DNA of 64,000 nucleotides from a virus: the IMG/VR virus record IMGVR_UViG_3300037485_000225, positions 1 through 64,000 of that record; one strand, given 5' to 3'. Position numbers and translations under genes: made by a program. The notes under the pieces were generated by a model. That model did not search any database and was not told the origin of the DNA. It saw only the letters and a program-made list of their open reading frames with translations. Within the stretch, counting starts at the first letter, position 1; each line of letters begins with the position of its first letter. Shown in pieces: positions 14,633 through 61,947 of the stretch.

Positions 14633-14640
14633 AAATAACC

Positions 14641-15254: not shown

Positions 15255-15578
15255 ATGGCTTATGTTCAGCATGTAATAATGCTGCTAAAAAAGCTGCTCA
15301 AAGAATTAGAAATGTTATCTCCAAGATTAACTGATTGTGTAGCTGATGGTAGCATACCAGCACTACTATTTGATATTGATCAAAAGCTAGCAGACCTAGC
15401 TAATATTCAATATAATAATATTGTATTTTCATTAAATTACTATATCTCTGGAGAAGTGATTGGTGATTTATTACACTATAAACAAATATTAACATATAAA
15501 CTTTGTAACCCAGCATATGGTCAACCTTTTACGGTGAAGATGATTGCTAGCAGAGTTAAAGTTTTAATACATAAATAA
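15255..15578 (+). CDS. hypothetical protein; true start may be the ATG at 15312
   Basis: ORF whose first 80 nt overlap an alternative 44-aa Cys-rich ORF (15200-15334) in another frame. Confidence 0.35.
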   Translation: MAYVQHVIMLLKKLLKELEMLSPRLTDCVADGSIPALLFDIDQKLADLANIQYNNIVFSLNYYISGEVIGDLLHYKQILTYKLCNPAYGQPFTVKMIASRVKVLIHK

Positions 15579-15585
15579 ATATAAA

Positions 15586-16749: not shown

Positions 16750-16769
16750 TAATTATAAATCAATTATAA

Positions 16770-30576: not shown

Positions 30577-31443
30577 ATGTCTCAAACAGTTGTAATAAGA
30601 TTAACGTGTGCTGGAAACAGAACAGGCCCTTTTGATATCTCAGATAACTTAGATAATGTATTAGGTGTGGGCATATCCAAGCAAAATCTTATTGATGGAT
30701 ATACAGTGAGTGTTGATGATGCTGTAACTACTATTATTATAGAATCTGTAGGAAAATGTAACACTCGCATAGATGTAAGTATTGGTACAGCTACTATAGA
30801 AGAATTAGCTGCTATCAGATTTATAGAATGTAACACAGCTTCTCTTTGGAAACATCTTACTAATACAACAATTTATAATAAGTATTATGGTAATATAGAA
30901 CCTTATATAATAGAATATCCTTTTGCTTATCAATACTATGATGAAATCCTTCAGAATGTAAAAGACTATACAAAGGCATATAAGTATTTACCTATTTCAG
31001 ATGGTGTGTTTAATGACAATGCTCAGATACAAACAGATAACCAATGGTTTAATAAAGCTATTGTGTATAATGGACAACAGTCTTCTGGGGTGCTTGAGTT
31101 AGTTCCTAAGCCTATAAACAACCTTAATGAATATTTAAAATATCCTATATATAACGAAGAAAGTAAAACTATCACTTATACTAAGAGTGATAATTTTTAT
31201 GGATATAATACATTTTGGAGTCTTGTTAAAAATAAATCCGTACCTTTGTTTACAACAAGTTGTGAGTCATTATCAATCGATAAGGTTGTAAATCAAGTGA
31301 ATATGGATTATGGAAAAAGATCATTTAAGAAAGAACCATTGAGAGCTAAAGATTTAAAGGTGAGACATATTTTAGATAATAGCTCTGAGGCACATTTGGT
31401 TAGTCAATTCATTGTTACACCTGCTCAAATCTCTTATAAGTAA
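30577..31443 (+). CDS. hypothetical protein with TGPFD N-domain (paralogue of the 21370 N-terminus)
   Basis: Shared N-domain as described under 21370; follows a giant tail gene just as 21370 does. Confidence 0.5.
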   Translation: MSQTVVIRLTCAGNRTGPFDISDNLDNVLGVGISKQNLIDGYTVSVDDAVTTIIIESVGKCNTRIDVSIGTATIEELAAIRFIECNTASLWKHLTNTTIYNKYYGNIEPYIIEYPFAYQYYDEILQNVKDYTKAYKYLPISDGVFNDNAQIQTDNQWFNKAIVYNGQQSSGVLELVPKPINNLNEYLKYPIYNEESKTITYTKSDNFYGYNTFWSLVKNKSVPLFTTSCESLSIDKVVNQVNMDYGKRSFKKEPLRAKDLKVRHILDNSSEAHLVSQFIVTPAQISYK

Positions 31444-33794
31444 TGGCAAAGTGGTTAAGTAAATATGAACAAGGAGGAATGGTCTTAAAACAAAAGACTC
31501 ATGACAACTATGGCAAGAAGCCTAACCCTAATGATGTACAAGCATCTGTAGGTCCAGACTTTGTAGGGCTTGGATATAATACTAAGGGTAGAAACTATTC
31601 TCCTGCATGGGGAGGACAGTTTCAGAATGGTGGATTCTTACAACCTAATAGTTCTAAGTTACCAGAGGGATATGTAATACCATATAATACTCCTAGCACT
31701 GAACTAGCTATGTCTATAGGTGGAGAAGAAGGAGAACCAGCTTATTTGATTCCTTCATTTAAGGGTGGTAAGAAATTAAAAGATCCTATTGCTGAATATA
31801 AAAAGACAGGCGAGCATTTAGGTGGTCCATTTAAAACATGGCAAGAAGCTGAGAAGTTTGGTGAGATGAGACATAATTATGTAGAGAAAGGACAATCACT
31901 TCCTTCTCCATTAAAGTGGTGGGATGATATGCAAATGGGTGGTGCCTTACCAGGTGCTACAGGAATGATGTACGCACGTACACAAGATCCTGCCCCTAGC
32001 AATGGTAAGTATGCTAAGAAGACATTAGCTTCTGCTCAGAATGGTAAAGAGATGCCTAAAGCTTATTGGGCTAGTAATGATGAAAGAGATGCTTATAGAA
32101 AGAATTTAAAAGCTGCTGCAGAAGCTGCATTAACTAACAATGCTTCAGATGAAGATTTATTAATAAATACATCATATCATAATATTGATGAAGGTAATAA
32201 TTGTATAAGTGGTGTTTGTGGATTAAATCGTAAAGCTGGGTTAGCTTATAATAAACCTACAGATAATGATAGATTCTTAAGCGGAGAGAAGTTTGCACAA
32301 GCTGTAGCTAAAGGAGATGAAGATTATTATCAAGTGAGTGGTAACTTTCAACCAGGAGACCATTTACAATATAGACATAAAGAAGGATCTAGTAGTCATA
32401 ACAAGATTATATATGATATACAAGTAGATGATAAGGGGGAGAAGATGTATAAAGTTATAGATAATGCTGGTGGTAAAGACATGCGTTCTAGAGACTATAC
32501 AGAAGCTGAACTAAAAGAATTAGTAGAAAAAGGTGGTGGAGGATATGATAAAGTTAACATATACAGACCTGGATATAATCTAGATAAGCCTTTATTAGAT
32601 AAAGAAAGAGAAGCTAAAACTTCTCCAGAAGCTAGAGCTGCTTTGGCAGAACGTAAGAATATACAAGAGTGGGATGCTTCTCACAATCCTGGATTTGATT
32701 ATAGTATTAGACCTGATAGTGAATTCTATAATAAGCAACCAGAAGGAATGAAGAAGTTTGTTGAATTTGCTAATAATGATGCAAAGGTTACTGCATTAGC
32801 TAAAAAGCTTAATGTTGGTAAAGATATAATACATGACCAATTATTAAATACATTTGGTGAGCTAGGACAGGAAAACAAATGGGAAGACCCATGGTTTGGT
32901 GGAGATTTATCTAAAGGAAAATCTCCTATACCAATTCCTTTTGAAAGTACAATAGAAAGAATATTTAGTCCTGGTAGTATGTCAATAGGTCCAGGTCAAA
33001 TTAAATATAAAACACTTGATCCTGAATTAAAAAAACAGTTTGGTATTAATAGACCAAAGGATTTACATGATTTTGATAAAGTGATTCCTTTGATGACTGC
33101 TATTAATGTTAAGAACAAAAAATGGATGGAAAATCAGGGAGATGACCTATCTACTAAATTAGTAGGTAATCCTGGAACTTCTGCTGATGAAATCAAATAT
33201 GGTGTAGATAGATGGGTACCTTATGCTTATCAAGGATTACCTACTGATCCAGTTGCTTCTGTAAGAAGAGACGCTCAAGAGAATGTTAATTCATATAGAA
33301 TGTCTACAAAAGATAGAGAAGAGTACATTAATAATTATATTAAGAAAAATATTGATCCTGATAAACTAAAAACATTTGATGAAGGTTCTTATGCAGGAAG
33401 AGTATATGACTTAATTGATAAAAACTTAAGTAGAACTATGCCAGCTCAAAACTATGAACAATATAATGAGCTAATGCCTGTTACAGTGAAGTCTAAAAAG
33501 AAGATGCAGAATGGTGGAGAGATGGCTTTTTATCAAAATGGACTAGACTGGAAACCTAAGACTATAAGTAAGAATGGTTCTATAATTAAAGATGATATGG
33601 GTCAATGGGCTCATCCAGGTGAGATTACAGAAATAGATTCTAATGAAATTACAATGGAAGGAGTTCCTTATGATGTAATTGGTGTATCAGATGAAGGAGA
33701 TATAAAAGATATGAAACCAGGAAAAAACTATAAATTCAAAGGAAGTAAAGTTACAGAATATCCTAAGGGTGGCTGGTTAAACAAATATAAATAA
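31443..33794 (+). CDS. large virion/ejection protein with putative NlpC/P60- or CHAP-like cysteine peptidase (cell-wall hydrolase) domain
   Basis: NNCISGVCGL (Cys) ... QPGDHLQYRH...SHNKIIYD (His) resembles DCSG...PGDL.FF...HVGIY.G of NlpC/P60 (about nt 32150-32480). Q-N-G-G motifs recur and are shared with the next ORF. Confidence 0.4.
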   Translation: MAKWLSKYEQGGMVLKQKTHDNYGKKPNPNDVQASVGPDFVGLGYNTKGRNYSPAWGGQFQNGGFLQPNSSKLPEGYVIPYNTPSTELAMSIGGEEGEPAYLIPSFKGGKKLKDPIAEYKKTGEHLGGPFKTWQEAEKFGEMRHNYVEKGQSLPSPLKWWDDMQMGGALPGATGMMYARTQDPAPSNGKYAKKTLASAQNGKEMPKAYWASNDERDAYRKNLKAAAEAALTNNASDEDLLINTSYHNIDEGNNCISGVCGLNRKAGLAYNKPTDNDRFLSGEKFAQAVAKGDEDYYQVSGNFQPGDHLQYRHKEGSSSHNKIIYDIQVDDKGEKMYKVIDNAGGKDMRSRDYTEAELKELVEKGGGGYDKVNIYRPGYNLDKPLLDKEREAKTSPEARAALAERKNIQEWDASHNPGFDYSIRPDSEFYNKQPEGMKKFVEFANNDAKVTALAKKLNVGKDIIHDQLLNTFGELGQENKWEDPWFGGDLSKGKSPIPIPFESTIERIFSPGSMSIGPGQIKYKTLDPELKKQFGINRPKDLHDFDKVIPLMTAINVKNKKWMENQGDDLSTKLVGNPGTSADEIKYGVDRWVPYAYQGLPTDPVASVRRDAQENVNSYRMSTKDREEYINNYIKKNIDPDKLKTFDEGSYAGRVYDLIDKNLSRTMPAQNYEQYNELMPVTVKSKKKMQNGGEMAFYQNGLDWKPKTISKNGSIIKDDMGQWAHPGEITEIDSNEITMEGVPYDVIGVSDEGDIKDMKPGKNYKFKGSKVTEYPKGGWLNKYK

Positions 33795-33814
33795 ATCATA
33801 CAATAGAGTATAAT

Positions 33815-36800
33815 ATGAAAGACCAAATGTTAAAAATAGCTAAAGTAAAATCTGAGAAGGAGTTCTATAAAAAGTATCCTACAGAAGAAGCATTTATGGC
33901 TAAGCACGGTAAAGCTTTGAAGAAAGCTGCTATGGGTACCCAGATGGTTCAAACACAGTTAAAACAATTAACTGACTTTGGTAATCCTCCTATAGCCCAA
34001 AATGGTGCAGGAATTATTCCTTTTGAGGATGCAAGAACTAAAGCTCAAGCTACTATATTAGGTATAACTCCTGAGGAACTAATAAAGCGACAAGAGGCTG
34101 AAGCTGCTCAAGCTGCTCAAACTGCTACTGGTGGAGCTAATGATATAATGGGTCAATTAGCATCTTTTATTACTCCTGAGATGATAGCAGGTCTTGCTGC
34201 AAAGAATGGTTATAGTCTTTCAAAAGCTTATGATGGTGATGTACTTGATGCAAGTTATATTCCTATGGATCGAAAAACTCTTACAGCTCCTGATATGTCT
34301 TCTTTAAGTAAAAAATTATCTGATCCTGCTTTTCAAAAACAAGCTACAACTAATGTGGGAAACATAAAACCTAAAGCAGGACTTGATTTTAAAGGTGCAG
34401 GAATGTCAGCACTTAGTGCACTTCCTCAACTTATTGGTGATGTACAAGCTATAGGAGAAAGAAAAAAACAAAAGAAAGAATTAAAAAAAGGAGTGGATGT
34501 AAGCGATCTTGTAAGAAGAGCTGCTGAATCAAGACCTATATATCAACCTAATCAACAAATATGGCATCCTTGGGATAAACCAGCACAACCTGGAGAATTA
34601 TATAATTCTTATGGATCAAATACAAACTTTTTAACAGCAGCTAATGGTACACAGATTCAAAATACCTATGCTCCTACAAATACATTATATGATGATCTTG
34701 GATATGAACCATTGAATGAAAGTGATGTTAAGCAATATGATAAAGGTGGTAAAGTTAAGAAAGCTCAGTTTGGTATAGATATGCTTGCAGCTCCTGCAGG
34801 AAGTCTTGGTAGTGGACTAGGTAGCTCACTTGCTGGTGGAGGTTTTAAAGGAAGTCCTGAAGGAAATATTGGTTCTACTGTAGGAGCAATTGCTGGACAA
34901 CTTCTTATTCCTATTCCTGGTGTAGGAGCTATAATTGGTGGTGCACTTGGTGGATTATTTGGAGGTCTTATTGGAGGAGATGAACAAAGACAAATGGAAG
35001 AACTTCAAAATCAATATTCAAACAATACAGATCTTGCAGCAGGACAATCAGTTATACAAAGTATAGATCAACAATTTGGTGGAAGTAGAAAAGATGGTGG
35101 ATGGGTAAGTCATGATTGGCAGCCACAGGTTATCACAACCTTTGGTGAACATAAAGTTAAAGACTTGTTAAAACCTCCTTATGATGCAGATATGTTAAGA
35201 GCTGGTGGTAGTGTTGGATTTGAACATTATACACCTCCTAGTGCAGAAGCTATGTTTACAGGAAGACGTGATGTTCCTTATCAAATGGATAATGGTGGAA
35301 GAATGAATTCTACTAATATGATGTTTGATACAGATAAATATCCAAGAGCTGCACATGGTGCACAAGTAGCTTTAGATGGTGAGTTAAAAGTACATGAGGG
35401 TAAAGCTGAAACAATTTCTTATAATCCATTTTTACCTAAAGGTGGAGAGACAGTTATGTTTAAAGGCCCTTCTCACGCTAATGGTGGTATGGATATTTCT
35501 TATGGACAGAATGGTGTAGAGGTGGAAGGTGGTGAACCAGGAGTTGTATTAAAAGATGGTGGCGATGTACAAAAAGATGATAGTCTTGTAATATATGGTA
35601 ATATCAAATTTGATAAAACTGGTGCAGAACAATTAGGTGATCCAGATGCTGAAGGCCAAAAAATTAAAAACTATATGGATGATTTAAGTAAGTTTGAGAA
35701 TAAACAAAATAAGCTTAGAGAAAAAGGTCTTAAATTAATAGATGAAACTGACTTATTAAAAATGGGAACTGTAGAAGCTATAGATTTAGGAACAACTATG
35801 AATTTCAAAACTGCTGCTCAAAGAAAGATAGATGGTGCTGCTATACAAGAAGCTTATAATAAAACTGCTAAGGAGTATGGATACAAAGATGCAGGGAAGT
35901 TTATAGATGATGTTCGTAAAGGATCTGTTAAACAGCTTGAACCTATTGATGATTCAGAAACAGCTCAAGATGGTGCTATATTAAATGATTCAGTAAGTAA
36001 AGCATTGGCTAAGATGAAGACTCAAGGAAAAGGAATTCCTACAATGAAGACTCCAAATCCTTTAGCTGCAATTAATCAATCAAGACTAAATGCTATTGGA
36101 ACATATGGACAAGTGCCTACTGGTGGTTTACAAAGTAATCCAACAATGAATATACCAGGAGCTAGACAAGCTTCAGCAGTGCCAGGATTTACAGCAGACA
36201 CAACAGATATAACATCTAAGAATGATAAATGGAAAGATATATTAAGAGCAGTTTCAAGTGTTGTTCCTATGTTAAGACCTAGTAATGCACAACCTTTAGA
36301 TCCTAGTCAATTGTCTGGTGAGATGTTAGCTTTAGCTTCTAATCAATTAGAAGGGGTTCAAGCTCAGTCATTCCAACCAATGCTAGATCAGCCTTATGAC
36401 ATCTCTCTACAAGATCAAATCAATATGATAGATGCTCAAACTAATGCTGCTATTAGAGCTATAGGTATTGATCCTGCTGCACAATCTCAGCTTATGGCTA
36501 ATGCTATTGAAGCTAAAAATAGAGTGTTAGGAGAGGAGTTTAGAATGAATCAAGCTAATAAAGCTGGTATATATGCTAAGAATAGAGACTTGATAAATCA
36601 GTCTACTCTTCAAAATTTACAGATCTTTGATAAACAATATGAAAGACAATCTCAAGCTAAGAGCAATACTAAGGCTCAAGCTATTGGTGCATTAAACTCA
36701 ATCAATTCTAAAATTGCTCAGAACAAGTTGGAAAACAAGCAGTTAGGTGTATATGAGAATTTATATGGATATAGATTTGGATCTAATGGACAGGCTTACA

Positions 36801-37015: not shown

Positions 37016-37101
37016 CTAACTCAGTTATACCAGATTAACGAAAGTCGTTATTTGTCTTGGTATATAAAATAATTTAAATTACATTTGCTAATTCTAAAAC
37101 T

Positions 37102-48700: not shown

Positions 48701-51700
48701 TATTAAACGCACATACACTCCAATTAAACCAATTGTAGCTGGTGCTAAATTAAGTAACAATACTTGGAATGATATAATATTAGATAAATTCTCTCTTTAT
48801 CCATTGTCTTTCAGGGTGTTACATGAAATTAACACTAACACTAATAAGCCTACATCTAATGCTCTTAAGATGTATGAGAAGATGCAAGCAGAAGATATTG
48901 ATTATGTAGTATTTGAAAGTGCTAGAAAGGTGGGAGCTGAGGAAACACATGATGTATATAATGAAGAAGATGGATCATTTAATGATCGTCCTTTTCAAGG
49001 GGTTATTCAAGTTCCATTTGCTATTATAAGTATACAATCTGAAGTTCCTTCTCATGAAGATGGGTTGGTAACAAGAGGATCTCAAATGACTAAATTAGCT
49101 ACATTAGACTTCATGGAAGCTGGTATACCTGTTGATTTTGTACATAATGATAGTGTAGAATTCACCACTAAGAGATATGAAGCTTGGTATAATTTATCAG
49201 AAGTAGATAGAGAAGCAGCATCTCCTTTATATAAAGAGATTAAGAATAATCAAAATCTATTAGAAGAATTAATGGAGATAGGTATTGAATCTTTAGCTAA
49301 TAGATTTGATATTAAAATAATTAAAAATTTAGATAAGGATGGTAAAGTTATTAGAAGTTTTGAGTTAGGTGACATTAAAAAAGTGGCTACTACATTACAA
49401 AAAGAACTTACAAAGAGAGAAATTAATGTTAATATTAGTGAGGCTTTAAAAGACTATAAGTCTGGAAGTGTTGTAATAGAAGCTACTCCTGCATACAGGC
49501 AGATTAGAAATGTTCTATATTCTATTGCTGACAGAGAAGTGATATCTCCATCAATGCCTGGTGGAATGCTGGTACAAATCACTTCTTCATTATTAGAGTC
49601 TGTAAAAGCTAAGAAAGTAACCATCAATGGTAAGACAGGATATACATCTGATACATTAAGTTTTTATAAGAAAGATGGTAAACAAGTCTGTGGAATCATG
49701 GTGGCTAGATGGTTTGATAGCAAAAAGACTGATAAAGAACTATTAGATGAGTGGTATGATACAGACAAAGATGGTAACAAAACTCTTACAGAAGAGGGTA
49801 GAAAAATTCTATCTGGTGTAGCATTTCGTACTCCAACACAAAAGCAAAACTCAATGGAGAGTTTTGTTATTGAAGGATTTCTTCCTAGGGAGTTTGGTGA
49901 CTCTGTTGTTGTACCTTCAGAATTAGTTGCTAAGGTTGGATCTGACTTTGATATAGATAAATTAAGTATATATTTAAAAAATGTACTTGTAAACAAAGAA
50001 ACTGGTGAAGTTAAACTTATGCCTTACAAAGGAATAGGTAAAGCTGCTAGAGATACATTTAACAATGTAGATGATTATAAAAAGTCTTTGGAGAATGCTT
50101 ATATTGAATCTTTACAGAATTTAATATCTAATCCTCTAAACTATGATAAATTAGTTACAGCTAACTCAGCTAAGCCATTAGAAGATTTAGCTAAAGAAAT
50201 TACAAAGAAAGTAACAGGGGTAGAATTTGACTATAAGTCAGTTGACAATATGTTAAGTAGAACTTATATGTCTGAATTAAGACATGCGTTTGTAAATGGT
50301 AAACAAGCAATTGGTGTTGCTGCAGTGAATAATACAAATCATTCATTAAATCAACGCTCAACTATTTATATTGACTTAAATAAATTAGTCAATATGAGTA
50401 AGCAAGATCAATATTGGTTAGGTGATGGTAAGCTTAAGTTTAAGAAGTATAATACAATTAATCTAAATGGTAGTTCTGTTGCTACATTATCAATGATTAA
50501 AAACAAGGCAGGAGAACTTATTTCAGATACTCTTGGTATGTTCATTGATGGATATGTAGATGTTACTAAAAATGGTCCATGGATTATGCAATTAGGTGCA
50601 ACACCTAGTGTAGCTTCTACATGGATGTTCTTAACAAAGATTGGTGTGCCTATTAGAACCACTGCTTATTTCATGAATCAACCTATTGTTCGTGACTATC
50701 TAAAACAATTAGAAAATCAAGGAACTTCATGGTTATTCAACAATAGTGTTATGTCAGACATGTACATCAAGTATGCAACTAATTCAAAATTAGAAATTGA
50801 AGAATTACCTTCTGAGAAAGAATTAGGTGAGATGGTTGGTAAGACAGACCTAACTGCAGATGAGAAAAAGCAACAACAATTCATATTGGGAGAATTCTTA
50901 AAGTATGCTAAGATGGCTGAGCATATGTTCTTAATGATTCAAGGAACTAACTTTGATACAGCATCTTTCAATGATCCATATTTAATAACTAAAAAGTTAG
51001 TTCAATTAGAAAAGGCTAGAAACACTCTATTCTCTTCTGCAGATGATTTATTAAATAGTTCATTTATTGGTAAGCTTAGCAGAATTATTATTGAATTAAG
51101 AGAAGCCCTATCTAAAATTCTTAAATCTGATGAAGGTAAAATTAGAGAGGTTGTAGAAGATGTTCTATCTAACTATACAGATATGAACGATAGAGACTTT
51201 ACAAGGACTGCTCAAAGAGTTGTATCTACATTATTTGATTGGGCTGTACAAACTGATAAAGGATTAAACGCTCAAATTACAGAAGCTTTATTATCTAAAG
51301 ACAATACAGCTAAAAAGATTACTGATTTCATTGAGCCTATTATAGCTCCTGGAAGCACACATCCTTTAGCTAACAACCACGTAATCAAGATATTAAAACC
51401 TGAATTTGCTGATAAGATTAAAGGAAAACAAGCAAACAACTTAAGTCTTGTTAATAAGGGCAATAAGGTGTATGACCAAAACCAAATCATCTATTCATTT
51501 AAAGAGTTGAAAAACTATTTAAATAGTGTAAACAATCTTGAGTTGTATGATAAGTTAGTCACTCTTGCTGTATTACAATCTGGTCTATCAGAAAACAAGT
51601 TTTCATTTACATCTCTACTTCCTTATGAAGATACTAAGGCTATATATAATAATGTCTTAGCTGATTTACAGGAGATGCCTACATTAAGAAACTTTGCTGA

Positions 51701-52916
51701 CTTAAATGTATTTGAAAGAAACTATTGGAACTATGATGACATTGTTAAGAATAGAAGAGCTAGAGTTTCATTTAATTGGGAAACTAACTCATATGAGTAT
51801 AATAAAAATATGGAATTTAGTGGTGCTGATTATGTATCTCCTATTACAGTTGCAATAAAAGAAAAAGCTATTCCTCAATTAATAAAGCTAAGTACATTAG
51901 CTAGAGAAGCTAATAGTGATGTATTTGTATACACTTGGAAGGAAATCCCTAAAGGAAGAACAGAAGCCCAAATGAAAAAAGAAGGTGATTTTTCTTATAT
52001 TAAGAAGGGATTGTTTAAGAAGGTGTATAAAGATGGTGTTGCTTTAGAAGTTAAAGGTGCAGGCAAAGCTGTTAATTATATATACAAAATGATTAATGCT
52101 TGGGGAGAAGGAATAAAAGCTAATGAGTTTTATACAACAGGACAAAAGTCTGTAATAGATAATGGTTTTGAGAAGACAAATGAAATGGAAGATAAGGTGA
52201 TTACACCATACTTTGATCGACAAATTTCAAAAAAAGTTGTATCTTCACAACCTATGACTGGTATTATGGATTTAACAAGAGATGAACTATTAGAAGACTA
52301 TAGTCAAACTACAGGTCTTCCTGTGGGAACTACTATAAATTTTCAAGAAGAACCTACATCAGGATATAGAAATAGAACAATTAAGAATGCAAGTGCTGAT
52401 GCAACTATTGCATTAGCTCATGATTTTAATTCTGCTGGTGAAAAGTTAACTAAGTCTTCTGTATTAAATCAAAATAAGAAATATATACCTTTAACTATTC
52501 CTAGAAAGACAGAAACTTCTGATATTAATAAAGCTGATATAAGAACTCAAGTTAATATTGTAGTAGACCAATTAAATTCAGTAAATGCTAAAACATTGAA
52601 CATAGCAGGAAATGGTATATATACTATGAGAGATGCTGGATGGAATCAAGAAGAAGTAGATTTGATGACTTATAGAATATTAAAAGGTGTTGTAGAATCT
52701 CCTAATCTTAAGAATAAAATAGTTTCTCTTAGAACTGGTGGACAAACAGGATTTGATGAAGCTGGAGCTAAGGCTGGAATTAAATTAGGAATACCTACTA
52801 CTATACTAGCTCCAAAAGGCTGGACATTTAGAAACATAGCTGGTCAAGATATTTCTAATGAACAACAATTTAAAGCTAGATTTGGTAAATCTGAAGAAGA
52901 TCCTTTTCCATGTTAA
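39753..52916 (+). CDS. giant (4387 aa) multidomain protein with a two-barrel (DPBB) RNA polymerase core; probable virion-packaged, ejected RNAP
   Basis: Uninterrupted 13.2-kb ORF. Near aa 3340-3405, FRTPTQKQNSMESFVIEGFLPREFGDSVVVPSELVAKVGSDFDIDKL lines up with the beta-prime/Rpb1 catalytic barrel [43 protein letters not shown]. Shared residues are R.PT...SM..F, IEG, P..LV.A and D-F-D-x-D. Upstream near aa 2985-3095, IKPIVAGAKL...LYPLSFRVLHEI...VTRGSQMTKLATLDFMEAG resembles the beta-subunit barrel GDKMAGRHGNKG...LNPLGVPSRMNIGQILE...GGQRFGEMEV. The N-terminus has two Gly/Ala-rich hydrophobic segments. The C-terminus has a DprA/SLOG-like motif. Confidence 0.7.
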   Translation: MALPTKETLQNAERVIPDATERTLVEYPSNIPKFQMNLETATGGGNQQSDAYSRALLLASPTKPSNLTSSSTFSYNPLQIDTSGRYDRFILGQDNEDIQGKLQSGWDQAANGLVKGLGIAGTTFLDGTVGLIAGLTSSIANGSLNKFYNNDFTNYMDSLNKSMENKLPNYYTASERDAKWYEAENLFTANFFWDKIIKNLGFSAGAIGAGAVTAGLLSKVPALFGISKAGKLAQVADALEVGLKGVPEIERAAKAADIIAQTSKTINTLNKLSSVDRAVVAGLSAATEGGIEALQGLNSYRDKLIAQYQDTYGEYPPEDVLNKINNRAEDLGNARFGLNVLLLSATNYIQLPRILGSSYRSGKNTLINSAKTNLETGLLESSLPTKGIGKALYKARNVASLFFSPTEGFEEGAQYAIERGTQSYYNKKNYVKDESLGSFINSFSEAAGEGIKAVGDKEGMESILIGALSGGIQQAGFVGMYKNEQGNNRVGIGKGGAIGERGFTGYGGEMAKNTEDLIKQSKRFSLKGDEWLKDTKAGVKRGVVLQEEFDQHVRIGDVLEAKDTEFDYQHNYLLPRIKYGRYDLVKDDIDYYKGLASTQEGFDELKKKGIASELDTQQSFIDRIDNFAEHAKVVNSLNESLNLRYAGVVYKDTNKRAYSDDAIEQMIYAAAKISDYDKRVPQLTDKLVAAGIVVSNVLDDIISEGLPKEEVVKQAINDIDKLDVIEDVKVELKENLRDAVELSIRRKDFIDEYSNIKKNPAKYTEDKGDKPLNTNVQTVKIVTKTGEKDIVVGEELFLGNTVKYTSKGEEVRGFPRLTILGENEDGSIKIKDSNGDIRDISKSELADYKLSKVSDTLTNKTAAYYLAHVNDVFQYNFGQASEDKKRPGRLEYDNGKLFFVYKNYKGEIKRKQIDNSHFIAQEGFRDARIKTVGTLTAESAEKKAAREAFTSAEELKKQQQTLAQNRDNRLEIITELSNEHIAKLEAIEKKLEAKKEQLQKVTEDLEELKTLEKRDLSGNIIVRPFNTVLSKAMRGISTLNNTKDALEKEIAELTADKDELEFNIAYFEDFKQNLDELPENSGQFLEELKFQILIAEELRDKTQDNIKSLGGIIQKIDSAIKDFTQLLKDAFAKFDQDYPSYIKDEFERIINEGSTLSDLPSLKQFIADYVLLNDTKKEISLNKEKVSKLSDEINDLFKDFIEVQKDYDAKKLILDKFQEVADKYRQMKAEEDVLKKDKALQNVIDQSADKGIQTVEHNKPFEAMPKKSNEKIPNSTVAPVQGLSQESELAEHHVRANKFGVNFYDLPGHENFRGVIVTSENESQLGLGGTMVDGEYVGGLMNHLKNAGINPEDVDSKRTIALVMVSVDPNNGEKHLIGVDGQRLESPTVDNAIYQVFPENIDRMFRDDVDDDTKKQIIDDYRKWRNETIANPINDAHEIEASFGVPDYVQRVLENGDSERDYEADGVPVSDSALLTEEDIRTKRVVGIPTTDGAQTRGSVTFNNVKGLPLLFTSNGMVRLRNRQINNEEATLIHKVLVELSDILYDPKYKNWQSPKAQALLNWLKSVSYWGTPKDAEGNRKPAGYNSMFVENMELIMSEDETIRFAFTPSNIRDNKDAIIAEIEKLYGNVNSTMVTGGKSGEWNKPYVQITNIAEDGSIETKTWKNYQSFLLSKVDPDGKPRIAKEIPLTTQIRPVKDANDVNRKGVYFTVTDRNNADTEAVEVSPTAATVTQTTPYGTEAGPTLTTSTESVDKKADIERRRQEELDKYNSGDITVAGVKAINDKYNAELAALESGKTAAPVATQTTPTTSYVFDNKTQNVVTFPNLGPVSFILDLNKYNSSERKEGIAMAVPDTTLENMVVKLVNNSAQSGITQDSPEEQQNALAENVLRALVKKEIDKQLNAQVVAPTVVLPVTVEQERQAAEISVIDSSLQQKINQVAAQGDTAMSSQYRIKLVETFKKFQKEDWSKVETWLKANFPNIPVYRVKNMIQATNGRQAWGMLHDGAIYLSADNEIGTVYHEVFEAVWKMFTTPQERAKVAKEFRARKGSFIERETADEVKFADATDAQMKEQLAEEFRNMSLTGKNVGVATEGMSTTRRILNEIWEAIKAFFTGDKAQTNTANLFDRIGNGFYKEYIPEEAGLSFANRGFIDIEDAVGNDDSEFSLAVFSGEQIHDIIQHMTYTLVKDLFSTNQGLFEMRDEKKKDVYARLKQEMELLMAQNIVSISKITNEKLSEEDKADKIKNFRQLNILINLNWDLLQEKHEEYIKSYSIQFDENDGSIRTDEDNDGKGTMYGDANKIDVFKKANSAIKILLASLPVVDVNGDPLPSSIGGFSLIPMSEVFISVMNNTHTAKNIDEMVADIQDMAKNDIRYQKLFNRITKGKNIEDFDNEEDIKLLTALWATFKKQSPDVKNVYILENGDIQVGDSNFSTAARQVKQEFVNDIKKSISNGSKYFRYSEKAGAFVGEIDSINDVKLNSLQAQVNFMKDLGIDFDYKKLVKMPEKGMFSIAVNGIRESISKANKIISFNGQALSIDGRLRQLSEIKAKMDNPEFSSTYYNVKGELTQTFIGTNAASDLYNTLSQISNISELQGTQYEYLLTDTFAKNSTLLGLMFDLVTGKRIEGSNNYMKTGYADGVVDQETGKQKQSSKLNSRERMMQEINLNLSGYYLNLIPGDSSIEWMMYMGNKIKPDDLLLNRQAIFDVFKGYFIDELNLSRENRKVVEGRNSKDLRFFKNILGEKVHNDIITEKGTAEEIYGDYEKKINTALNKFFDTQREVLKNTLSDFKLIEQYENTWVSESLNFDKKEFTNETLDIQLDALNASFAINNIELHKLLYSDPYQYADELKRIKSFSSPRQAIINGSIALNKAFQKVWNKAFKPGEIGYTNFERDFFRSTTLTEIMGIDDAGMYDAYKEGDGGGMISLNALRNFKIRASQWDSGQERQYKYDVAWEKQYKFYKKVKGVSLNAQDKKILAKGNPNIKRTYTPIKPIVAGAKLSNNTWNDIILDKFSLYPLSFRVLHEINTNTNKPTSNALKMYEKMQAEDIDYVVFESARKVGAEETHDVYNEEDGSFNDRPFQGVIQVPFAIISIQSEVPSHEDGLVTRGSQMTKLATLDFMEAGIPVDFVHNDSVEFTTKRYEAWYNLSEVDREAASPLYKEIKNNQNLLEELMEIGIESLANRFDIKIIKNLDKDGKVIRSFELGDIKKVATTLQKELTKREINVNISEALKDYKSGSVVIEATPAYRQIRNVLYSIADREVISPSMPGGMLVQITSSLLESVKAKKVTINGKTGYTSDTLSFYKKDGKQVCGIMVARWFDSKKTDKELLDEWYDTDKDGNKTLTEEGRKILSGVAFRTPTQKQNSMESFVIEGFLPREFGDSVVVPSELVAKVGSDFDIDKLSIYLKNVLVNKETGEVKLMPYKGIGKAARDTFNNVDDYKKSLENAYIESLQNLISNPLNYDKLVTANSAKPLEDLAKEITKKVTGVEFDYKSVDNMLSRTYMSELRHAFVNGKQAIGVAAVNNTNHSLNQRSTIYIDLNKLVNMSKQDQYWLGDGKLKFKKYNTINLNGSSVATLSMIKNKAGELISDTLGMFIDGYVDVTKNGPWIMQLGATPSVASTWMFLTKIGVPIRTTAYFMNQPIVRDYLKQLENQGTSWLFNNSVMSDMYIKYATNSKLEIEELPSEKELGEMVGKTDLTADEKKQQQFILGEFLKYAKMAEHMFLMIQGTNFDTASFNDPYLITKKLVQLEKARNTLFSSADDLLNSSFIGKLSRIIIELREALSKILKSDEGKIREVVEDVLSNYTDMNDRDFTRTAQRVVSTLFDWAVQTDKGLNAQITEALLSKDNTAKKITDFIEPIIAPGSTHPLANNHVIKILKPEFADKIKGKQANNLSLVNKGNKVYDQNQIIYSFKELKNYLNSVNNLELYDKLVTLAVLQSGLSENKFSFTSLLPYEDTKAIYNNVLADLQEMPTLRNFADLNVFERNYWNYDDIVKNRRARVSFNWETNSYEYNKNMEFSGADYVSPITVAIKEKAIPQLIKLSTLAREANSDVFVYTWKEIPKGRTEAQMKKEGDFSYIKKGLFKKVYKDGVALEVKGAGKAVNYIYKMINAWGEGIKANEFYTTGQKSVIDNGFEKTNEMEDKVITPYFDRQISKKVVSSQPMTGIMDLTRDELLEDYSQTTGLPVGTTINFQEEPTSGYRNRTIKNASADATIALAHDFNSAGEKLTKSSVLNQNKKYIPLTIPRKTETSDINKADIRTQVNIVVDQLNSVNAKTLNIAGNGIYTMRDAGWNQEEVDLMTYRILKGVVESPNLKNKIVSLRTGGQTGFDEAGAKAGIKLGIPTTILAPKGWTFRNIAGQDISNEQQFKARFGKSEEDPFPC

Positions 52917-52930
52917 AATAAAATAATACA

Positions 52931-55900
52931 ATGCTTTGTAACGTAAGAACAAATTCAGTTAATAGTTTAATAAAGAAAGGTGCAATAGATAGTAGTATGA
53001 CTATCATTGATGGTGAGTTATTTAATGAACTTAATCAAACATATTCTGATATTGCTAAAACTAAATATGGTGTAAAGAATGATGGATTGTTATTTAGTAA
53101 ACAATCTAAAGAAGTTCCACGTTTAGGAGCTTCTGTATATTATAGAGAAGATACAAAAAGTGTTCTTAAGGCTGTAGGCAATGATGAGATGTTTGAGGAA
53201 TTACAAAACAATTATAATAGTCAAACAGGACAATCATTTCAATTAGACTCTGTTCCTGCTTCTAAATCTTCTCCTGAACTAATTGCTAAAATAATGGCAG
53301 TTGGTAAACAAATGGGTATTGATTTTCAAGACCTTGCAACATATGCTAAGAAAACAGGACTTGACACTAAAGATATAGCTGGTGTAGCTGATCTTTTTAG
53401 GGGTGTAGTGGCAGTGGCTGAAGGAAGAGAAGACCAAGCATTAACAGAAGAGATAGTTCACATAGCTACAGCTATATTAGAACAGACTAATCCTCAGCTT
53501 ATTACATCGCTTATTTCACAAATAGGTAAGTATAAAATCTACAATGTTACACTTGATGCTTATAAGAATAAAAAAGAATACCAACTATCTAATGGCAAAC
53601 CTGACATTCGTAAAATAAAAAAGGAAGCAGTAGATAAGTTAATTGTTGAAATGATGATTAACCAATCAGAAGGTTCAACAGACTTTCCTGAATTGATGGA
53701 AAAGAAAGACAGAAATGCTGTACAAAGAATGTGGGATGCAGTGTTAGAAGCTATTAGAAGTTTATATAGAAAAAGTAAAATAGATCTGTTTGGTGAGACT
53801 GCTGCTAGAATAGCTGCAGGTGATGTGAAAGGAACAGTGGCAGATATCAAAGAGGGGGGTGTGTTTTTTCAAACTGAACAAATTGAAGCTCTTAATAAAT
53901 ACTATGATCAAATTATAGATAAAGATGGTAGACTTAAAATAGTTCTTGAAACAAAAGATGCTAATGGTAATGTGATTAAAAAGAGACATCGTATGTTTGA
54001 TGGCACTATAGAGGTAGAACAAAGTGTTACTGAAAAAGCCAAAGGACAAAAAAAATATGAGGAAGCTGCTCCAGAGCAACAGATCAAGTATGACCAAATG
54101 AAAGATTGGGGAACTGTTGGTCATGATTTTATGAGAGATGTATTTAATAATGAGTTGATTGATGCTAATGGTTATAAAAAAGCTGAAACTCCTACTAATA
54201 TTAAGACTACATTAAACCCAGATTTACAAAAGAAAATAAGAGATTTTGCAAGAGAGTTGATTAATTCTTACAAACCAGGCACACGATTCATTATAGAAAG
54301 ACAAGTTATAAATGATAAAGTGAAAGGCATGATTGCTTCCACTGTGGATTTTAAAGCTCTTGAGCCTAATACAGATCCTAAAACTATGGATAAAATTCCA
54401 TTTTATATAGACACTCTTGACTGGAAATTTACTTCTCTTAATAAAGAAAATAATGAAGATATCCCTTTCCCTAAACAAAAAGAATGGAAGATTCAAATGG
54501 GAGAGTATGGAAAGATGGATATTGTTTATGGAGCTAAGTATGAACAACTTAGAAAACAAAGAATGATTCAGTTCATTGCTGGATATACCCCTAAAATAAA
54601 AGATGATAAGACTAGTCCATTAGTACTTACAACATTAGAAATTGGTAAGTTAGATAACGTAAAAGAAACTAACCTATACTTATTACCTGTAGCATTAGAT
54701 ACAGAAACTACAGGAAATAAAGAAGTGGACAGCTTAGTTAAATCATTAAGAACATATTACGAAAAATTATATATTGCACCTGTTACTGAAGGAAAGAAGT
54801 GGGTTAAAAAGAAGACAGATTTAAATCAAATCTCTAAAGCTATTCGTCACTTACATATGCAATTAAACTTTGAACCTTTATATAATACATCTAAAACGTT
54901 CTTGAATAATGCAGCGGAGTCATTTAAAAGCTTTGAAAATGTTGATTATAATAAATTAACAAAAGAAGAGATTGAAGATAAGTTGAAAGACTTATTAGAA
55001 TTACAAAGAAGTGCTGAGAAGTTTACTAGATTAGACGAAGTGTTCTTAACTACATTTCCTCCAGGTACCCAACTTAATGAAAAGGATAATGCAACATTAA
55101 AGAACTTAAGACAAGTTGCACGATCTACACAAGAGATGGAGAATAAGATTATTAAGCTATCTCAAAACTATGTTAAGTGGCTCGTTGTTAAAACAGGAGT
55201 TCTTGAAGAAGCTTTTGCAGAAGAAGCAATAAATGCTGAAGTGGAAGTGGATACTATGTCCAAAACCTTTTTAGAGGGTTCTAAACTAGATCCTGTATTA
55301 ACTAGAACAGCAGCTAAATTAGTTCAAGATTCATCTAACTTAGCAGCTATCAAAACTGGAAGGATGATTAATGCTTTTGCTAAGTTATTAGCTCCTTTAC
55401 AAAAACAGGCTGATGCTTTTGGTAAATCTGCTTTTGATATGATTGGTAAAGTGAGTGGTGGAAACTTAGAGCTATTTAAAAAAATTGATAGTCAATTCTT
55501 TAAAGATTTAAAGAAAGCTAAAGAAGATAAGAATAAACAATTCTTACTAGACAATATGAATGTTGCAGAATATAATAAGCTATCTAAACAACAAATTGAT
55601 GATGAGATAGAAGTTATTAATAAAACAACATATTCTACTAATAGCGATGATAACTTTGATATACAACAACGTAGAATCAAAAATGTAAGAAATGAGTTTG
55701 ATATAAATCGTGAAACATTTAATGGTTATAATAGCTATCAGTTTAAAAAACTATATGAAAAAGTTATAAAAGAAGAAGATCATTATTCTGAGGAGTATAA
55801 GGAGATGCAGAAAAATAAACCTGCATTAGATATGTGGGAATTCTTAACTGCTTTGAATCAAGAAGCTATTAATATGGGATATTTAAACAAACAAGGTTTG

Positions 55901-57910
55901 TCTTTCTTCCCATTAATTGAAGCTTCATTGTTCCAAAAGTTCTCTAGAACTAGTGATATTCTAGCAGAAGGTAGAGACTTCTTTAGTGATTTAATAAATG
56001 TTAGAGTGAATGAGAGTCAACAATATTCTAAAACTGATCCTGAAACAGGAGAACGTAAAAGAATCACTCCTACTTATTTCACTACTAATAGAAACATTGA
56101 TGAAGATACAGATAAAGCTGTACATAAACTATCTACAGATTTAAACAAGGTGGGTACAATGTGGATACAGGCTCTAATGAAATATCAACAAATCAAGGGA
56201 GTTGAGAACACATTACTTATATTAGATAAGGTGGAACAAGCTAAAGAAGCGTTATTACTAGATGATAATCAGAGTGTTGTTGTAGAGGGGGGAGTTAATA
56301 TGACCTTTAAGAGTAAAAGAAATGCTGATGCTCTTAGAGTGATTATAGATGACTATCTATATGGACTAGGAGAAGATTTAAATTCTCTTGGTAATCGTAC
56401 ATTAAGTAATGTTACAGGTAAGTTTAAAGAAGGAGAAAAAAGTGAAAACACCCAAATTTCTATTAAGAAAGGATTAAGAAATTCAAACAAACTTATACAA
56501 GCAGGTGCTGTTGGTTTAAAGCCATTGATTGCTATTGCTAACACATTTGGTAACCAGTTCCAAGCATTTATCAATGCTGGTAATAAAATTAAGCGTGGAG
56601 ATGCTACAAAGAATCTTGCTAAGATTGTTTCAGGAGTAGGAGTTACCACAATAGATAAAGGACTATTAGATTTGATTGTTCCATTAAATGAGGATGTAGC
56701 TTTACAAAAAAGAAGAGATATTGCTAAAGGACAGTCTTATATTAAATGGTTAGGTACATGGAGCTTCAGTGATGCAATGATGTCTACTAACTCAATTCCA
56801 GAGAAGAGAATGCAACTAGGAATAGGTTTAGCAATGAATGATAATTCTATGGTTAAGAATGGTAAGATTGTAAACATCAGACAATATGTTAAAGCTGAGG
56901 ATAGAAAAAAGAAATATGCAAAGGGGGTTACAGAAGAAGGAAGAAGAGATATAGAAAAAACGTATGAAGATAGGGTGAAAGCTCTTCAGGAAAGTAGTTC
57001 TCTTCCTAAAATTGCTAAGATTGAAAATGATGAGGTGGTTATACCTGGAGTATCTGATGAAGCATTAGCTGAATATCGTACATCAATTATTGACTATATT
57101 AAGAAGTTAAATGGCCAAATGAGTCAAGATAACAAAGCTGGTTATAGTAGAGACACTATATTTAAATCATTTATGATGTTCAGAACTTGGATACCTAAGT
57201 TAGTGAGCGAGCGTACTATGGATATAAATAAAAGTGTAGAACAAGAAGATTGGGAATATGGTAGAGTGAGAGCATTTTTGAAAACTTGGGCCCATCTAGG
57301 GTTTAAGAATATTTTCAAAATGAGAGAAATCATCAATGGTACAGATAAAGGTCTTGCCATATTAGATGAAATGCTAGAAGCTAAAAAAGCAGAATACCTA
57401 AGAAAGAATGGTAAAGAGTTACATATTACAAAAGAAGAGTTTTATGATTTAATGAGAAAAGAACTTTCTAACGAAATGAAAGAGTTAGGACTTCTTCTTA
57501 GTATGATAGGAATCTTCTTTGCTGCAAAAGCTGCTGCTCCTCCAGAAGATGCTGATGCTCTTACAAAAAATAGATACAAATATTTAGCTAAGGGTATTAA
57601 TAAAATTGTAGATGAGGTGAGCTTCTATTATAACCCATTATCATTTGAAGCTATAAGTAAAGGTAACATTGTACCAGCTCTTTCATTATTGGTAAAAGCT
57701 GAAAAAGTTTTCACTCAACTAAGTAAAGAAGCATATGGTCAATATACAGGAGATCAAAAAATGATAGATGAAGCACATCCTGGTAAATACATATTTGATA
57801 TGCTTCCTCCTTTCTCACAAATTCAAACAGAGATTCTACCATACGTAGATGCTGAATTTGCTAAAGAGTGGGGAATTAGAGTTAGTTCTCAGTCTAGAGT
57901 GTCTAGATAA
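52931..57910 (+). CDS. large virion/ejection protein (1659 aa)
   Basis: Continuous 5-kb ORF; coiled-coil rich. C-terminal hydrophobic segment LGLLLSMIGIFFAAKAAAPP. The true start may be a downstream Met. Confidence 0.5.
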   Translation: MLCNVRTNSVNSLIKKGAIDSSMTIIDGELFNELNQTYSDIAKTKYGVKNDGLLFSKQSKEVPRLGASVYYREDTKSVLKAVGNDEMFEELQNNYNSQTGQSFQLDSVPASKSSPELIAKIMAVGKQMGIDFQDLATYAKKTGLDTKDIAGVADLFRGVVAVAEGREDQALTEEIVHIATAILEQTNPQLITSLISQIGKYKIYNVTLDAYKNKKEYQLSNGKPDIRKIKKEAVDKLIVEMMINQSEGSTDFPELMEKKDRNAVQRMWDAVLEAIRSLYRKSKIDLFGETAARIAAGDVKGTVADIKEGGVFFQTEQIEALNKYYDQIIDKDGRLKIVLETKDANGNVIKKRHRMFDGTIEVEQSVTEKAKGQKKYEEAAPEQQIKYDQMKDWGTVGHDFMRDVFNNELIDANGYKKAETPTNIKTTLNPDLQKKIRDFARELINSYKPGTRFIIERQVINDKVKGMIASTVDFKALEPNTDPKTMDKIPFYIDTLDWKFTSLNKENNEDIPFPKQKEWKIQMGEYGKMDIVYGAKYEQLRKQRMIQFIAGYTPKIKDDKTSPLVLTTLEIGKLDNVKETNLYLLPVALDTETTGNKEVDSLVKSLRTYYEKLYIAPVTEGKKWVKKKTDLNQISKAIRHLHMQLNFEPLYNTSKTFLNNAAESFKSFENVDYNKLTKEEIEDKLKDLLELQRSAEKFTRLDEVFLTTFPPGTQLNEKDNATLKNLRQVARSTQEMENKIIKLSQNYVKWLVVKTGVLEEAFAEEAINAEVEVDTMSKTFLEGSKLDPVLTRTAAKLVQDSSNLAAIKTGRMINAFAKLLAPLQKQADAFGKSAFDMIGKVSGGNLELFKKIDSQFFKDLKKAKEDKNKQFLLDNMNVAEYNKLSKQQIDDEIEVINKTTYSTNSDDNFDIQQRRIKNVRNEFDINRETFNGYNSYQFKKLYEKVIKEEDHYSEEYKEMQKNKPALDMWEFLTALNQEAINMGYLNKQGLSFFPLIEASLFQKFSRTSDILAEGRDFFSDLINVRVNESQQYSKTDPETGERKRITPTYFTTNRNIDEDTDKAVHKLSTDLNKVGTMWIQALMKYQQIKGVENTLLILDKVEQAKEALLLDDNQSVVVEGGVNMTFKSKRNADALRVIIDDYLYGLGEDLNSLGNRTLSNVTGKFKEGEKSENTQISIKKGLRNSNKLIQAGAVGLKPLIAIANTFGNQFQAFINAGNKIKRGDATKNLAKIVSGVGVTTIDKGLLDLIVPLNEDVALQKRRDIAKGQSYIKWLGTWSFSDAMMSTNSIPEKRMQLGIGLAMNDNSMVKNGKIVNIRQYVKAEDRKKKYAKGVTEEGRRDIEKTYEDRVKALQESSSLPKIAKIENDEVVIPGVSDEALAEYRTSIIDYIKKLNGQMSQDNKAGYSRDTIFKSFMMFRTWIPKLVSERTMDINKSVEQEDWEYGRVRAFLKTWAHLGFKNIFKMREIINGTDKGLAILDEMLEAKKAEYLRKNGKELHITKEEFYDLMRKELSNEMKELGLLLSMIGIFFAAKAAAPPEDADALTKNRYKYLAKGINKIVDEVSFYYNPLSFEAISKGNIVPALSLLVKAEKVFTQLSKEAYGQYTGDQKMIDEAHPGKYIFDMLPPFSQIQTEILPYVDAEFAKEWGIRVSSQSRVSR

Positions 57911-61921: not shown

Positions 61922-61947
61922 TAGATAAAAATGTAAAATAAATATAA

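Follow-up and report, generated by a model that had tools for sequence, protein, structure and literature searches.

Five giant genes of an uncultured environmental phage as a probable crass-type cargo and virion RNA polymerase module

The DNA analysed here is a stretch of 64,000 nucleotides (nt), hereafter the window, which covers positions 1 to 64,000 of the IMG/VR virus record IMGVR_UViG_3300037485_000225 and is a single long phage late operon on the + strand. Five consecutive giant open reading frames (ORFs), labelled A to E in order, take up 26,468 nt of it, i.e., 41.4%. A first-pass annotation, made from the letters alone, had listed five ORFs of 783, 1066, 883, 4387 and 1659 amino acids (aa) covering about 41% of the window, and both these sizes and their coordinates exactly match the ORF list. 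The near-zero intergenic space that it described is also found, the gaps being 0 nt between the upstream ORF and A (one base is shared), 20 nt between A and B, 86 nt between B and C, -1 nt between C and D, and 14 nt between D and E. The five ORFs are:

31443-33794, + strand: ORF A, 783 aa, putative mosaic cargo protein
33815-37015, + strand: ORF B, 1066 aa, cysteine-free putative cargo protein, candidate membrane-inserting or channel component
37102-39753, + strand: ORF C, 883 aa, putative cargo protein of unknown fold
39753-52916, + strand: ORF D, 4387 aa, gp47/g067-like part, gp66-type RNA polymerase (RNAP) and SLOG domain
52931-57910, + strand: ORF E, 1659 aa, counterpart of phi14:2 g065 and crAss001 gp49

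We propose, with a probability of about 85%, that A to E constitute the cargo and virion RNAP module of a crAss-type podophage. The first-pass annotation had already suggested a crAss-type cargo and RNAP block, and this suggestion is borne out by homology, synteny and a predicted fold. The material for this reading consists of the ORFs themselves, their homology and synteny, the predicted folds, and the motifs.

The fused giant ORF D and its neighbour E

The main evidence comes from the two last genes, whose features are:

39753-46352, + strand: N-terminal ~2200 aa of D, counterpart of crAss001 gp47 and phi14:2 g067 (phmmer, tblastn)
45813-45827, + strand: HEVFE, D aa 2021-2025, opposite the zincin-like HEAFH of crAss001 gp47 in a pairwise alignment; also present in homologue P0074 and relative L005
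48453-51452, + strand: gp66-type two-barrel RNAP catalytic core, D aa 2901-3900 (model, Foldseek, profile)
49944-49958, + strand: DFDID catalytic Mg-binding motif, D aa 3398-3402, the same as 1361-DFDID-1365 of phi14:2 gp66
52335-52865, + strand: cpYpsA-type SLOG domain, D aa 4195-4371 (PF12694, 28.5 bits against a cut-off of 26.2)
53447-53461, + strand: EEIVH, E aa 173-177, at a weakly aligned zincin-motif position
57482-57541, + strand: conserved hydrophobic helix of E, aa 1518-1537 (hydropathy; kept in alignment A3)

By sequence comparison, D is made of a gp47/g067-like part (aa ~1-2200), a gp66/gp50-like RNAP (aa ~2250-4190) and a C-terminal SLOG domain. The RNAP had been placed in the fourth ORF by the first-pass annotation, and three results agree with it there, i.e., the DFDID motif, a model resembling PDB 6VR4, and the profile matches to gp66 and gp50. 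Indeed, the AlphaFold2 model of D aa 2901-3900 (predicted local distance difference test, pLDDT, 85.4; predicted template modelling score, pTM, 0.84) has as its top Foldseek match 6vr4_A, the virion RNAP of phi14:2 (E 7.3e-22, probability 1.00, TMq 0.61, 1115 columns), and the remaining matches (E >= 0.03) are cellular Rpb1-type subunits. We gathered the homologues of this core with a 1000-aa query, and the hidden Markov model built on A1, a 43-sequence alignment of metagenomic homologues, matches phi14:2 gp66 (E 2e-58, aa 660-1715) and crAss001 gp50 (7e-42). The gp66 region aligned by this profile (aa 660-1715) contains the connector, DFDID, the bridge helix and the trigger loop. DFDID is nearly invariant across the 43 sequences; in phi14:2 gp66, every Asp of this motif is required for activity, and crAss-like RNAPs typically have Ile or Val as the fourth residue of DFDxD.

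The N-terminal part of D was assigned in the same way. By phmmer, D aa 97-236 match crAss001 gp47 aa 86-223 (i-E 4e-31) and D aa 1887-2058 match gp47 aa 2016-2194 (8e-11), while tblastn of D against gp47 gives 3e-23; taken together, both programs map D aa 97-760 and 1887-2083 onto gp47, and D aa 3023-3732 onto gp50. In addition, D aa 105-687 match a 1552-aa protein of Leptolyngbya phage Lbo-JY46. At the other end of the ORF, the SLOG domain also matches phrog_10774 (E 2.6e-30) and PDB 3imk_A (E 2.2e-5), and a direct sequence search of D against the PDB returned a weak SLOG match only. Past D aa ~4190, the tail of the RNAP varies among the relatives (homologues P0003-P0080), which carry a cpYpsA SLOG domain, NADAR/YbiA (PF08719), PF25176 or none, and many of these tails end in a conserved peptide of ~30 aa, ...GYxPEEIGKILKxIC.

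Fused giant ORFs of the size of D are already known in Suoliviridae, and RNAP gene fusions are mentioned in the gp66 preprint. In cr118_1 (4946 aa) and cr10_1 (4460 aa), single DFDxD ORFs show the same architecture as D plus E of the window, with a cysteine near the C-terminus as well; in cr118_1, the 4946-aa ORF is followed by a 1667-aa protein starting with MICPN. These are, however, gut phages of a different family, with ~24% identity to the window over the aligned parts and somewhat more cysteines (5-7). Among the closer relatives, fused versions reach 3735 aa and 4656 aa, and others split the gene near D aa 3270-3340. In L005 (325-12835), for instance, the split lies ~60 aa upstream of DFDxD and yields ORFs of 3196 and 944 aa, separated by 85 nt, with a junction devoid of cysteines; in L006 (~517-12997), the upstream part of the RNAP is an uninterrupted frame of 3146 codons that is not called as a gene.

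This architecture raises the question of whether D acts as one chain. D could be a polyprotein, cut after synthesis or packaging into a gp47-like protein, an RNAP and perhaps a free SLOG domain, as its parts map one to one onto genes that are separate elsewhere, and as relatives split the gene at other points (e.g., 3196 + 944 aa in L005). Nevertheless, we hold this cleavage to be possible rather than probable: A to E show HEVFE and EEIVH in place of HExxH, i.e., no canonical protease motif, no cleavage site can be read from the sequence, and fused forms of 3735-4946 aa are common, so that an uncut chain is equally possible. A zincin-like HExxH metallopeptidase was reported for the gp65/gp47 protein group in the gp66 preprint, and HExxH is present in phi14:2 g065 (HEIMH) and crAss001 gp47 (HEAFH). 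The HEVFE and EEIVH positions, conserved in the clade of the window, would either be left over from a protease that is no longer active or form a metal site of another kind.

E is the counterpart of the gene that follows the RNAP in phi14:2. Over aa 1-86, E shares 36% identity with the N-terminus of phi14:2 g065, annotated as 'RNA polymerase associated protein', and the profile of the 27-sequence E family matches g065 with an hhalign probability of 92%. The invariant ALTEEIVHIA of E aligns weakly with ALPEEFAHFA of crAss001 gp49. More than 650 homologues of E were found, mostly of 1560-1680 aa, some of which carry a C-terminal ART-PolyVal or His_Phos_1 domain. The last ORF had been described as ending with a hydrophobic helix; this helix exists, but it stops 122 residues before the C-terminus instead of closing the protein.

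The nature of this polymerase also bears on two other families of virion machines. The first-pass annotation had drawn a parallel with N4-like phages (Schitoviridae), and the likeness is functional: PMC13434306 and PMC11445570 describe the same logic of lifestyle, i.e., a giant packaged polymerase ejected with helper proteins for early transcription. On the contrary, homology is lacking, and a true N4-like virion RNAP and ejection-protein module is so improbable that we give it almost no weight. The N4-like virion RNAP has a T7-like single-subunit fold and its companion virion proteins are unrelated to those of the window too, whereas D has a two-barrel DFDxD fold of the gp66 type, the N4 mini-vRNAP 3c46_B ranks only 50th (E 1.0, probability 0.02), and the capsid, rings and muzzle are of the crass type. 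The giant ORFs could also be tape-measure or baseplate-type tail proteins, possibly fused to an RNAP as in Thermus phage P23-45, in which a virion RNAP is reported to be fused to a 5002-aa tape measure, a protein of similar size. The first-pass annotation had itself named tape-measure or baseplate homology as what would speak against its proposal; looked for in A to E, no tape-measure, tube, sheath or baseplate family was matched in PHROG or Pfam. With a tail of the crass ring and muzzle type, and with D matching gp47 and gp66/gp50, we consider the tape-measure or baseplate explanation very improbable.

Genomic setting, known phages and lineage

The genes upstream of the block were assigned by PHROG and Pfam scans and by comparison with known phages:

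3378 (start), + strand: TerL
5414 (start), + strand: P22-like portal
9941-11494, + strand: major capsid protein (MCP; PF23898 Crass_capsid, 93.5 bits against a cut-off of 27)
22075 (start), + strand: exonuclease-like gene
23325-24056, + strand: tail ring protein 2 of the crass tail barrel (CrAss_Ring_2, 54 bits against a cut-off of 27; phrog_9863, virion structural protein)
24056-24535, + strand: IHF/HU-like protein between the ring genes (tblastn to phi14:2 g073 E 2e-14, to crAss001 gp42 E 4e-4; weak match to Pfam Bac_DNA_binding)
24542-25507, + strand: tail ring protein 1 (CrAss_Ring_1, 27.7 bits, barely above the cut-off of 27)
25522-30558, + strand: muzzle protein, the tail-tip gatekeeper, main part (crAss_MUZ, 122.3 bits)
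30577-31443, + strand: 288-aa ORF, separate from the muzzle ORF but related to the C-terminal end of a muzzle protein (phmmer E 1.8e-23 to aa 1459-1641 of the 1654-aa Lbo-JY46 protein); C-terminal part of phrog_15100

All four crass hallmarks (Crass_capsid, CrAss_Ring_1, CrAss_Ring_2 and crAss_MUZ) exceed their Pfam cut-offs and lie directly upstream of A to E. Because these Pfam crass families stand upstream, the five giant genes can be placed directly behind a crass muzzle. The muzzle ORF matches the 1654-aa protein of Lbo-JY46 (E 1e-199), as well as phi14:2 g071 and crAss001 gp44, and the ring 2 gene is syntenic with its Lbo-JY46 homologue. The muzzle is split in two ORFs here and in the relatives L010 and L067, versus a single 1654-aa protein in Lbo-JY46.

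The closest layout among characterised phages is that of phi14:2 (Crassvirales, Steigviridae), whose RNAP gp66 is PDB 6VR4. Its genes follow one another as TerL g094, portal g093, g092, MCP g091, then ring g074, IHF g073, ring g072 and muzzle g071, and, after the muzzle, g070, g069, g068, g067 (1797 aa), the RNAP g066 (2180 aa) and g065 (1421 aa), so that, from the rings through the final RNAP-associated gene, the gene order is identical to that of the window. Moreover, g065-g072 and g074 are annotated as virion proteins from tandem mass spectrometry; the IHF gene g073 has no such note. The window shares with phi14:2 the DFDID motif, terminal cysteines at the same junctions, the TerL-portal-g092-MCP order, the resemblance of the D core to 6VR4 and that of the E N-terminus to g065. 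On the other hand, g067 and g066 are separate genes in phi14:2 and fused in D; gp66 has no Pfam match at all, whereas D has its C-terminal SLOG domain; g065 keeps a canonical HEIMH, whereas E has EEIVH at the weakly aligned candidate position; the sequences are only distantly alike, with 25% identity in the motif region and 36% along 86 aa of E; and g070-g068 are not detectably related to A-C. The first-pass annotation had opposed the head order TerL, portal, scaffold, MCP to classic crAss-like layouts. The window is collinear with phi14:2 and crAss001, in the first of which TerL, portal, g092 and MCP come in the same order, while in the second TerL gp19 is followed by portal gp20; therefore this contrast was wrong.

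In crAss001, a comparable set stands behind the muzzle gp44, with the cargo proteins gp45 (C1) and gp46 (C2) and the RNAP-associated gp47, gp49 and gp50. There, gp47 resembles the D N-terminus, gp50 the D core and gp49 the EExxH region of E, and terminal cysteines are present as well. In contrast to the window, gp49 and gp50 are on the opposite strand, gp45 has an N-terminal transmembrane helix where B has an internal glycine-rich segment, and neither gp45 nor gp46 is convincingly similar to A-C, the best match being B versus gp45 (44%). By mass spectrometry, Bayfield et al. (PMC10172136) detected gp45, gp46, gp47, gp49 and gp50 in crAss001 virions, and they proposed that these five proteins are ejected, partly unfolded, before the DNA. 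For RNAPs of the gp66 type, occurrence in virions and early transcription resistant to rifampicin are known from phi14:2 and crAss001 only.

These orthologues speak against another reading of the block, as an intracellular machinery for transcription or host takeover, expressed after infection and never packaged. The module of this phage is known from genes alone, and some phages, such as P23-45, phiKZ and AR9, have non-virion two-barrel RNAPs (among the PDB matches to the D core are 7ogp and 7s01). Yet the genes follow the muzzle immediately, inside the late structural operon, the block is orthologous and collinear to virion proteins of phi14:2 and crAss001, and it shares with these packaged orthologues a depletion of cysteines and the presence of terminal ones. 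We thus judge a purely intracellular role improbable.

To place the lineage, TerL was compared with 50,697 deposited phages. The best match is Lbo-JY46 (39.6%), followed by Cellulophaga phages phi17:2 and phi4:1 (32%) and then by classified Crassvirales (25-28%). A megablast of the block against the same 50,697 phage records gave no nucleotide match, and an exact TerL look-up found no identical sequence on record. Metagenomic relatives number in the hundreds, and the same five-slot layout recurs among them. Hence, the possibility of an undescribed lineage, raised by the first-pass annotation, stands as far as close deposited phages are concerned (TerL 39.6%, no nucleotide match), but not in view of the hundreds of metagenomic relatives and of the giant fusions already known. 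Judged from pairwise identities, the block is a crass-type module of a deep, abundant, uncultured environmental lineage, whose TerL groups with phages having no RNAP or a barely recognisable one.

By TerL, the nearest cultured phage is Lbo-JY46, an unclassified member of Caudoviricetes on which a literature search found nothing. Its cargo layout is that of the window, synteny extends to the portal, MCP, rings and muzzle, its A-, B-, C- and D-slot proteins share terminal segments with A-D, and the junction between its 1552-aa and 2748-aa proteins follows the cysteine pattern. In contrast to the window, the A1 profile finds no gp66-type RNAP in the Lbo-JY46 genome, whose last cargo protein (2748 aa; 12354-20600 of locus L003) carries a GNAT acetyltransferase domain. 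A crass-type RNAP homologue, with 34% identity across nearly the whole core, also occurs inside a 4.8-Mb contig of the isolate Chitinophaga sp. YR573 (NZ_FOJF01000001.1, 3724727-3747933), with weaker cases in Puia and Spirosoma; such homologues may belong to a crass-like element that is integrated or carried.

Some observations concern the operon as a whole. Three collagen-like tail-fibre genes (16770-19466 and within 58064-63660) have a G+C content of 0.39-0.43 versus 0.30-0.36 elsewhere in the window, and several fibre proteins have Cys-rich N-termini (MSCxxC...). Between 30000 and 49999, sigma-70-like promoter matches are rarer than in shuffled sequences (63 versus 93 +/- 10), a deficit consistent with a single long late transcript or with a non-sigma-70 promoter type; promoter and terminator scans over 30-64 kb gave nothing informative.

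The first three genes as candidate cargo

The features of A and B are:

32175-32570, + strand: putative CHAP/NlpC-P60-like cysteine peptidase domain of A, candidate catalytic Cys254, His319 and Asn341
32880-33437, + strand: putative SLT-like lytic transglycosylase domain of A (aa ~480-665), with Glu501-Ser502 and GPGQIK 516-521
34865-34993, + strand: hydrophobic segment of B, rich in glycine and resembling a glycine zipper (matched by Pfam Gly-zipper_Omp at aa 351-393, E 4.6e-5)

A, which is identical to protein P0087 of a JGI metagenome, is a mosaic. By mapping the BLAST coverage of 120 homologues, we divided it into an N-module (aa 1-204) and a C-module (aa 680-783), both conserved, with an enzymatic middle (aa ~205-680) between them. 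The N- and C-modules recur at 60-90% identity in more than 100 proteins, in shuffled order, and the middle in ~28 proteins. The protein starts with WLSKY and ends with WLNKY, both near-invariant in the family. A homologue of A, P0118, has a LysM adjoining its middle module, and the payload of the slot differs between relatives: CHAP/SLT here, ART-PolyVal in L066 (10001-13666) and His_Phos_1 in L067 (10001-13114). In these payload-swapped relatives, the slot also lies directly behind the muzzle and the 288-aa ORF.

The first-pass annotation had read the middle of A as an NlpC/P60- or CHAP-like peptidase. The motifs that it quoted are present (NNCISGVCGL, aa 252-261, nt 32196-32225; SSSHNKIIYD, aa 316-325), as is VIDNAGG (aa 338-344). 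In the predicted model, the conserved Cys254 sits at the N-terminal end of a helix and the conserved His319 at the start of the following strand, which is the arrangement of the papain-like fold. The assignment of A as a CHAP/NlpC-P60-like peptidase is thus supported at the level of fold and motif, but not by family sequence profiles; that of the second domain as an SLT-like lytic transglycosylase is plausible.

B is widespread, with 1110 representative homologue clusters at E<=1e-3 (clusters at 50% identity) and a highly conserved stretch of 40 residues at its N-terminus. Its hydropathy peaks at aa 356-388, and the glycine pattern there is kept in the 24-sequence alignment A4. The glycine zipper announced in this ORF is hence retained as a conserved glycine-rich hydrophobic segment, but its score against Gly-zipper (PF13488), 23.7 bits, is under the Pfam gathering threshold of 25 bits. 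The C-terminal part of B matches the 484-aa Lbo-JY46 protein of the same slot (hhalign 82%), and B has a weak match to crAss001 gp45 aa 688-729 (hhalign 44%). As for C, its N-terminal 268 aa match the 845-aa Lbo-JY46 protein in the same position (hhalign 97.5%), its slot is filled by 793-882-aa homologues in L005, L066 and L067, and hhalign gave no link to crAss001 gp45/gp46 or phi14:2 g068-g070. From their position, their synteny with Lbo-JY46 and their composition, we infer a cargo role for A, B and C; position and composition also point to B and C as conduit or cargo proteins.

Several observations weigh against the proposed cargo and virion RNAP module. Hhalign detects no homology between the families of A, B and C and crAss001 gp45/gp46 or phi14:2 g068-g070. 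The model of A is only moderately confident (mean pLDDT 62), and A has no significant match in Foldseek (E >= 0.1), Pfam, NCBIfam or PDB-sequence searches. Indeed, neither Pfam nor PHROG profiles recognise it; its four modules searched against Pfam at E 10, and A, C and the D tail searched against NCBIfam, gave nothing useful; and no match to the PDB was obtained by sequence, with A used singly or as a profile. No canonical HExxH exists in A-E, the aligned positions being HEVFE in D and EEIVH in E. Packaging, order of ejection and activities are transposed from the orthologues to a phage known here from genes alone. Finally, close relatives are binned inconsistently, in metagenome-assembled genomes of unrelated phyla, and we make no host call.

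If A to E do form such a module, they would be packed into the capsid and the tail barrel, behind the muzzle, during assembly and, on adsorption, extruded ahead of the DNA in a partly unfolded state. A would then digest the peptidoglycan by its CHAP/NlpC-P60-like peptidase, probably helped by the SLT-like transglycosylase, and B, via its glycine-rich segment, would probably help to build a trans-envelope conduit with C. D and E would reach the cytoplasm, where the two-barrel RNAP of D (DFDID) would carry out early transcription without the host polymerase; the SLOG domain may be a co-delivered accessory enzyme or a nucleotide-binding module.

Terminal cysteines and exchangeable payloads

Cysteine is strongly depleted in the block: 6 of the 8778 residues of A-E (0.07%) versus 122/10,830 in the other 21 proteins of the window (1.1%; binomial P 1e-34). 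B has none, and two of those that are left occupy the facing ends of D and E:

52911-52913, + strand: D Cys4387, the last residue, one of two cysteines in 4387 aa (the other is at 3313)
52937-52939, + strand: E Cys3, the sole cysteine in 1659 aa

The same pattern was found in every crass lineage examined. In phi14:2, g067 ends in its sole cysteine, g066 carries Cys3 and Cys2179 (of 2180), and g065 has Cys3 and no other. In crAss001, the sole cysteine of gp47 is at position 2339 of 2341 and that of gp49 is Cys5, while gp50 has Cys5, Cys2404 (of 2412) and one internal cysteine. In Lbo-JY46, the 1552-aa protein ends in its sole cysteine and the next one (2748 aa) has its own at position 4, and the pattern also holds in cr118_1, cr108_1 and L005. 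On a larger scale, 70 of the 71 complete RNAP homologues have a cysteine within their last 6 residues, and 115/120 E homologues have one at position 3-5, exactly one cysteine being present in 109/120. Of the exceptions, only P0216 could be checked at the DNA level, where its start proved to be miscalled, and the rest look truncated or miscalled; a natural co-loss of paired cysteines was sought among these exceptions and no informative case was found. The junction between the g067- and g066-like parts fused inside D carries no cysteine. The crAss001 virion tail is known to contain disulfides. Cargo cysteines are mentioned neither in the crAss001 structure paper nor in the gp66 preprint, literature searches on cargo or terminal cysteines returned nothing, and the pattern is apparently unreported.

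At the level of sequence, the simplest reading that this pattern suggests is a head-to-tail disulfide link between the products of consecutive genes, metal bridging or bonds to other parts of the virion being the alternatives. The pairs would be D Cys4387 with E Cys3 in the window and, in phi14:2, g067 C1797 with g066 C3 and g066 C2179 with g065 C3. Such a 'post-translational polyprotein' would be threaded through the portal and the tail in a fixed order, then freed by reduction in the cytoplasm, and a gene fusion such as that of D would be the genetic equivalent of one disulfide link.

The variation of slot A, of the RNAP tail and of the E end suggests that the ejected proteins carry effector domains with them; the payloads exchanged between relatives would include CHAP/SLT, ADP-ribosyltransferase, histidine phosphatase, NADAR and SLOG domains. 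We tentatively combine both ideas, at rather less than even odds, in a delivery platform where the proteins of the RNAP module are disulfide-joined head to tail and the cargo slots hold exchangeable payloads. In 2017, Iyer, Burroughs, Anand, de Souza and Aravind reportedly described polyvalent proteins as large mosaics, containing for example ART-PolyVal, and proposed that they enter the recipient with the DNA. SLOG-type domains are said to occur in the polyvalent proteins of phages and conjugative elements. The likeness lies in the PF18760 ART-PolyVal of the relatives of A and E and in the cpYpsA domain of D. Unlike in polyvalent proteins, the domains of the window are attached to defined crass cargo slots and to the RNAP itself, and no MuF or typical polyvalent core domain was found in them.

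The module would extend the crassvirus kind of cargo and virion RNAP to a deep, abundant, uncultured environmental lineage. The terminal cysteines offer a testable hypothesis for the stoichiometry and ordered ejection of proteins of 150-500 kDa through a narrow channel, and the interchangeable enzymes in the first slot and in the RNAP tail point to host-takeover or anti-defence functions delivered early in infection.

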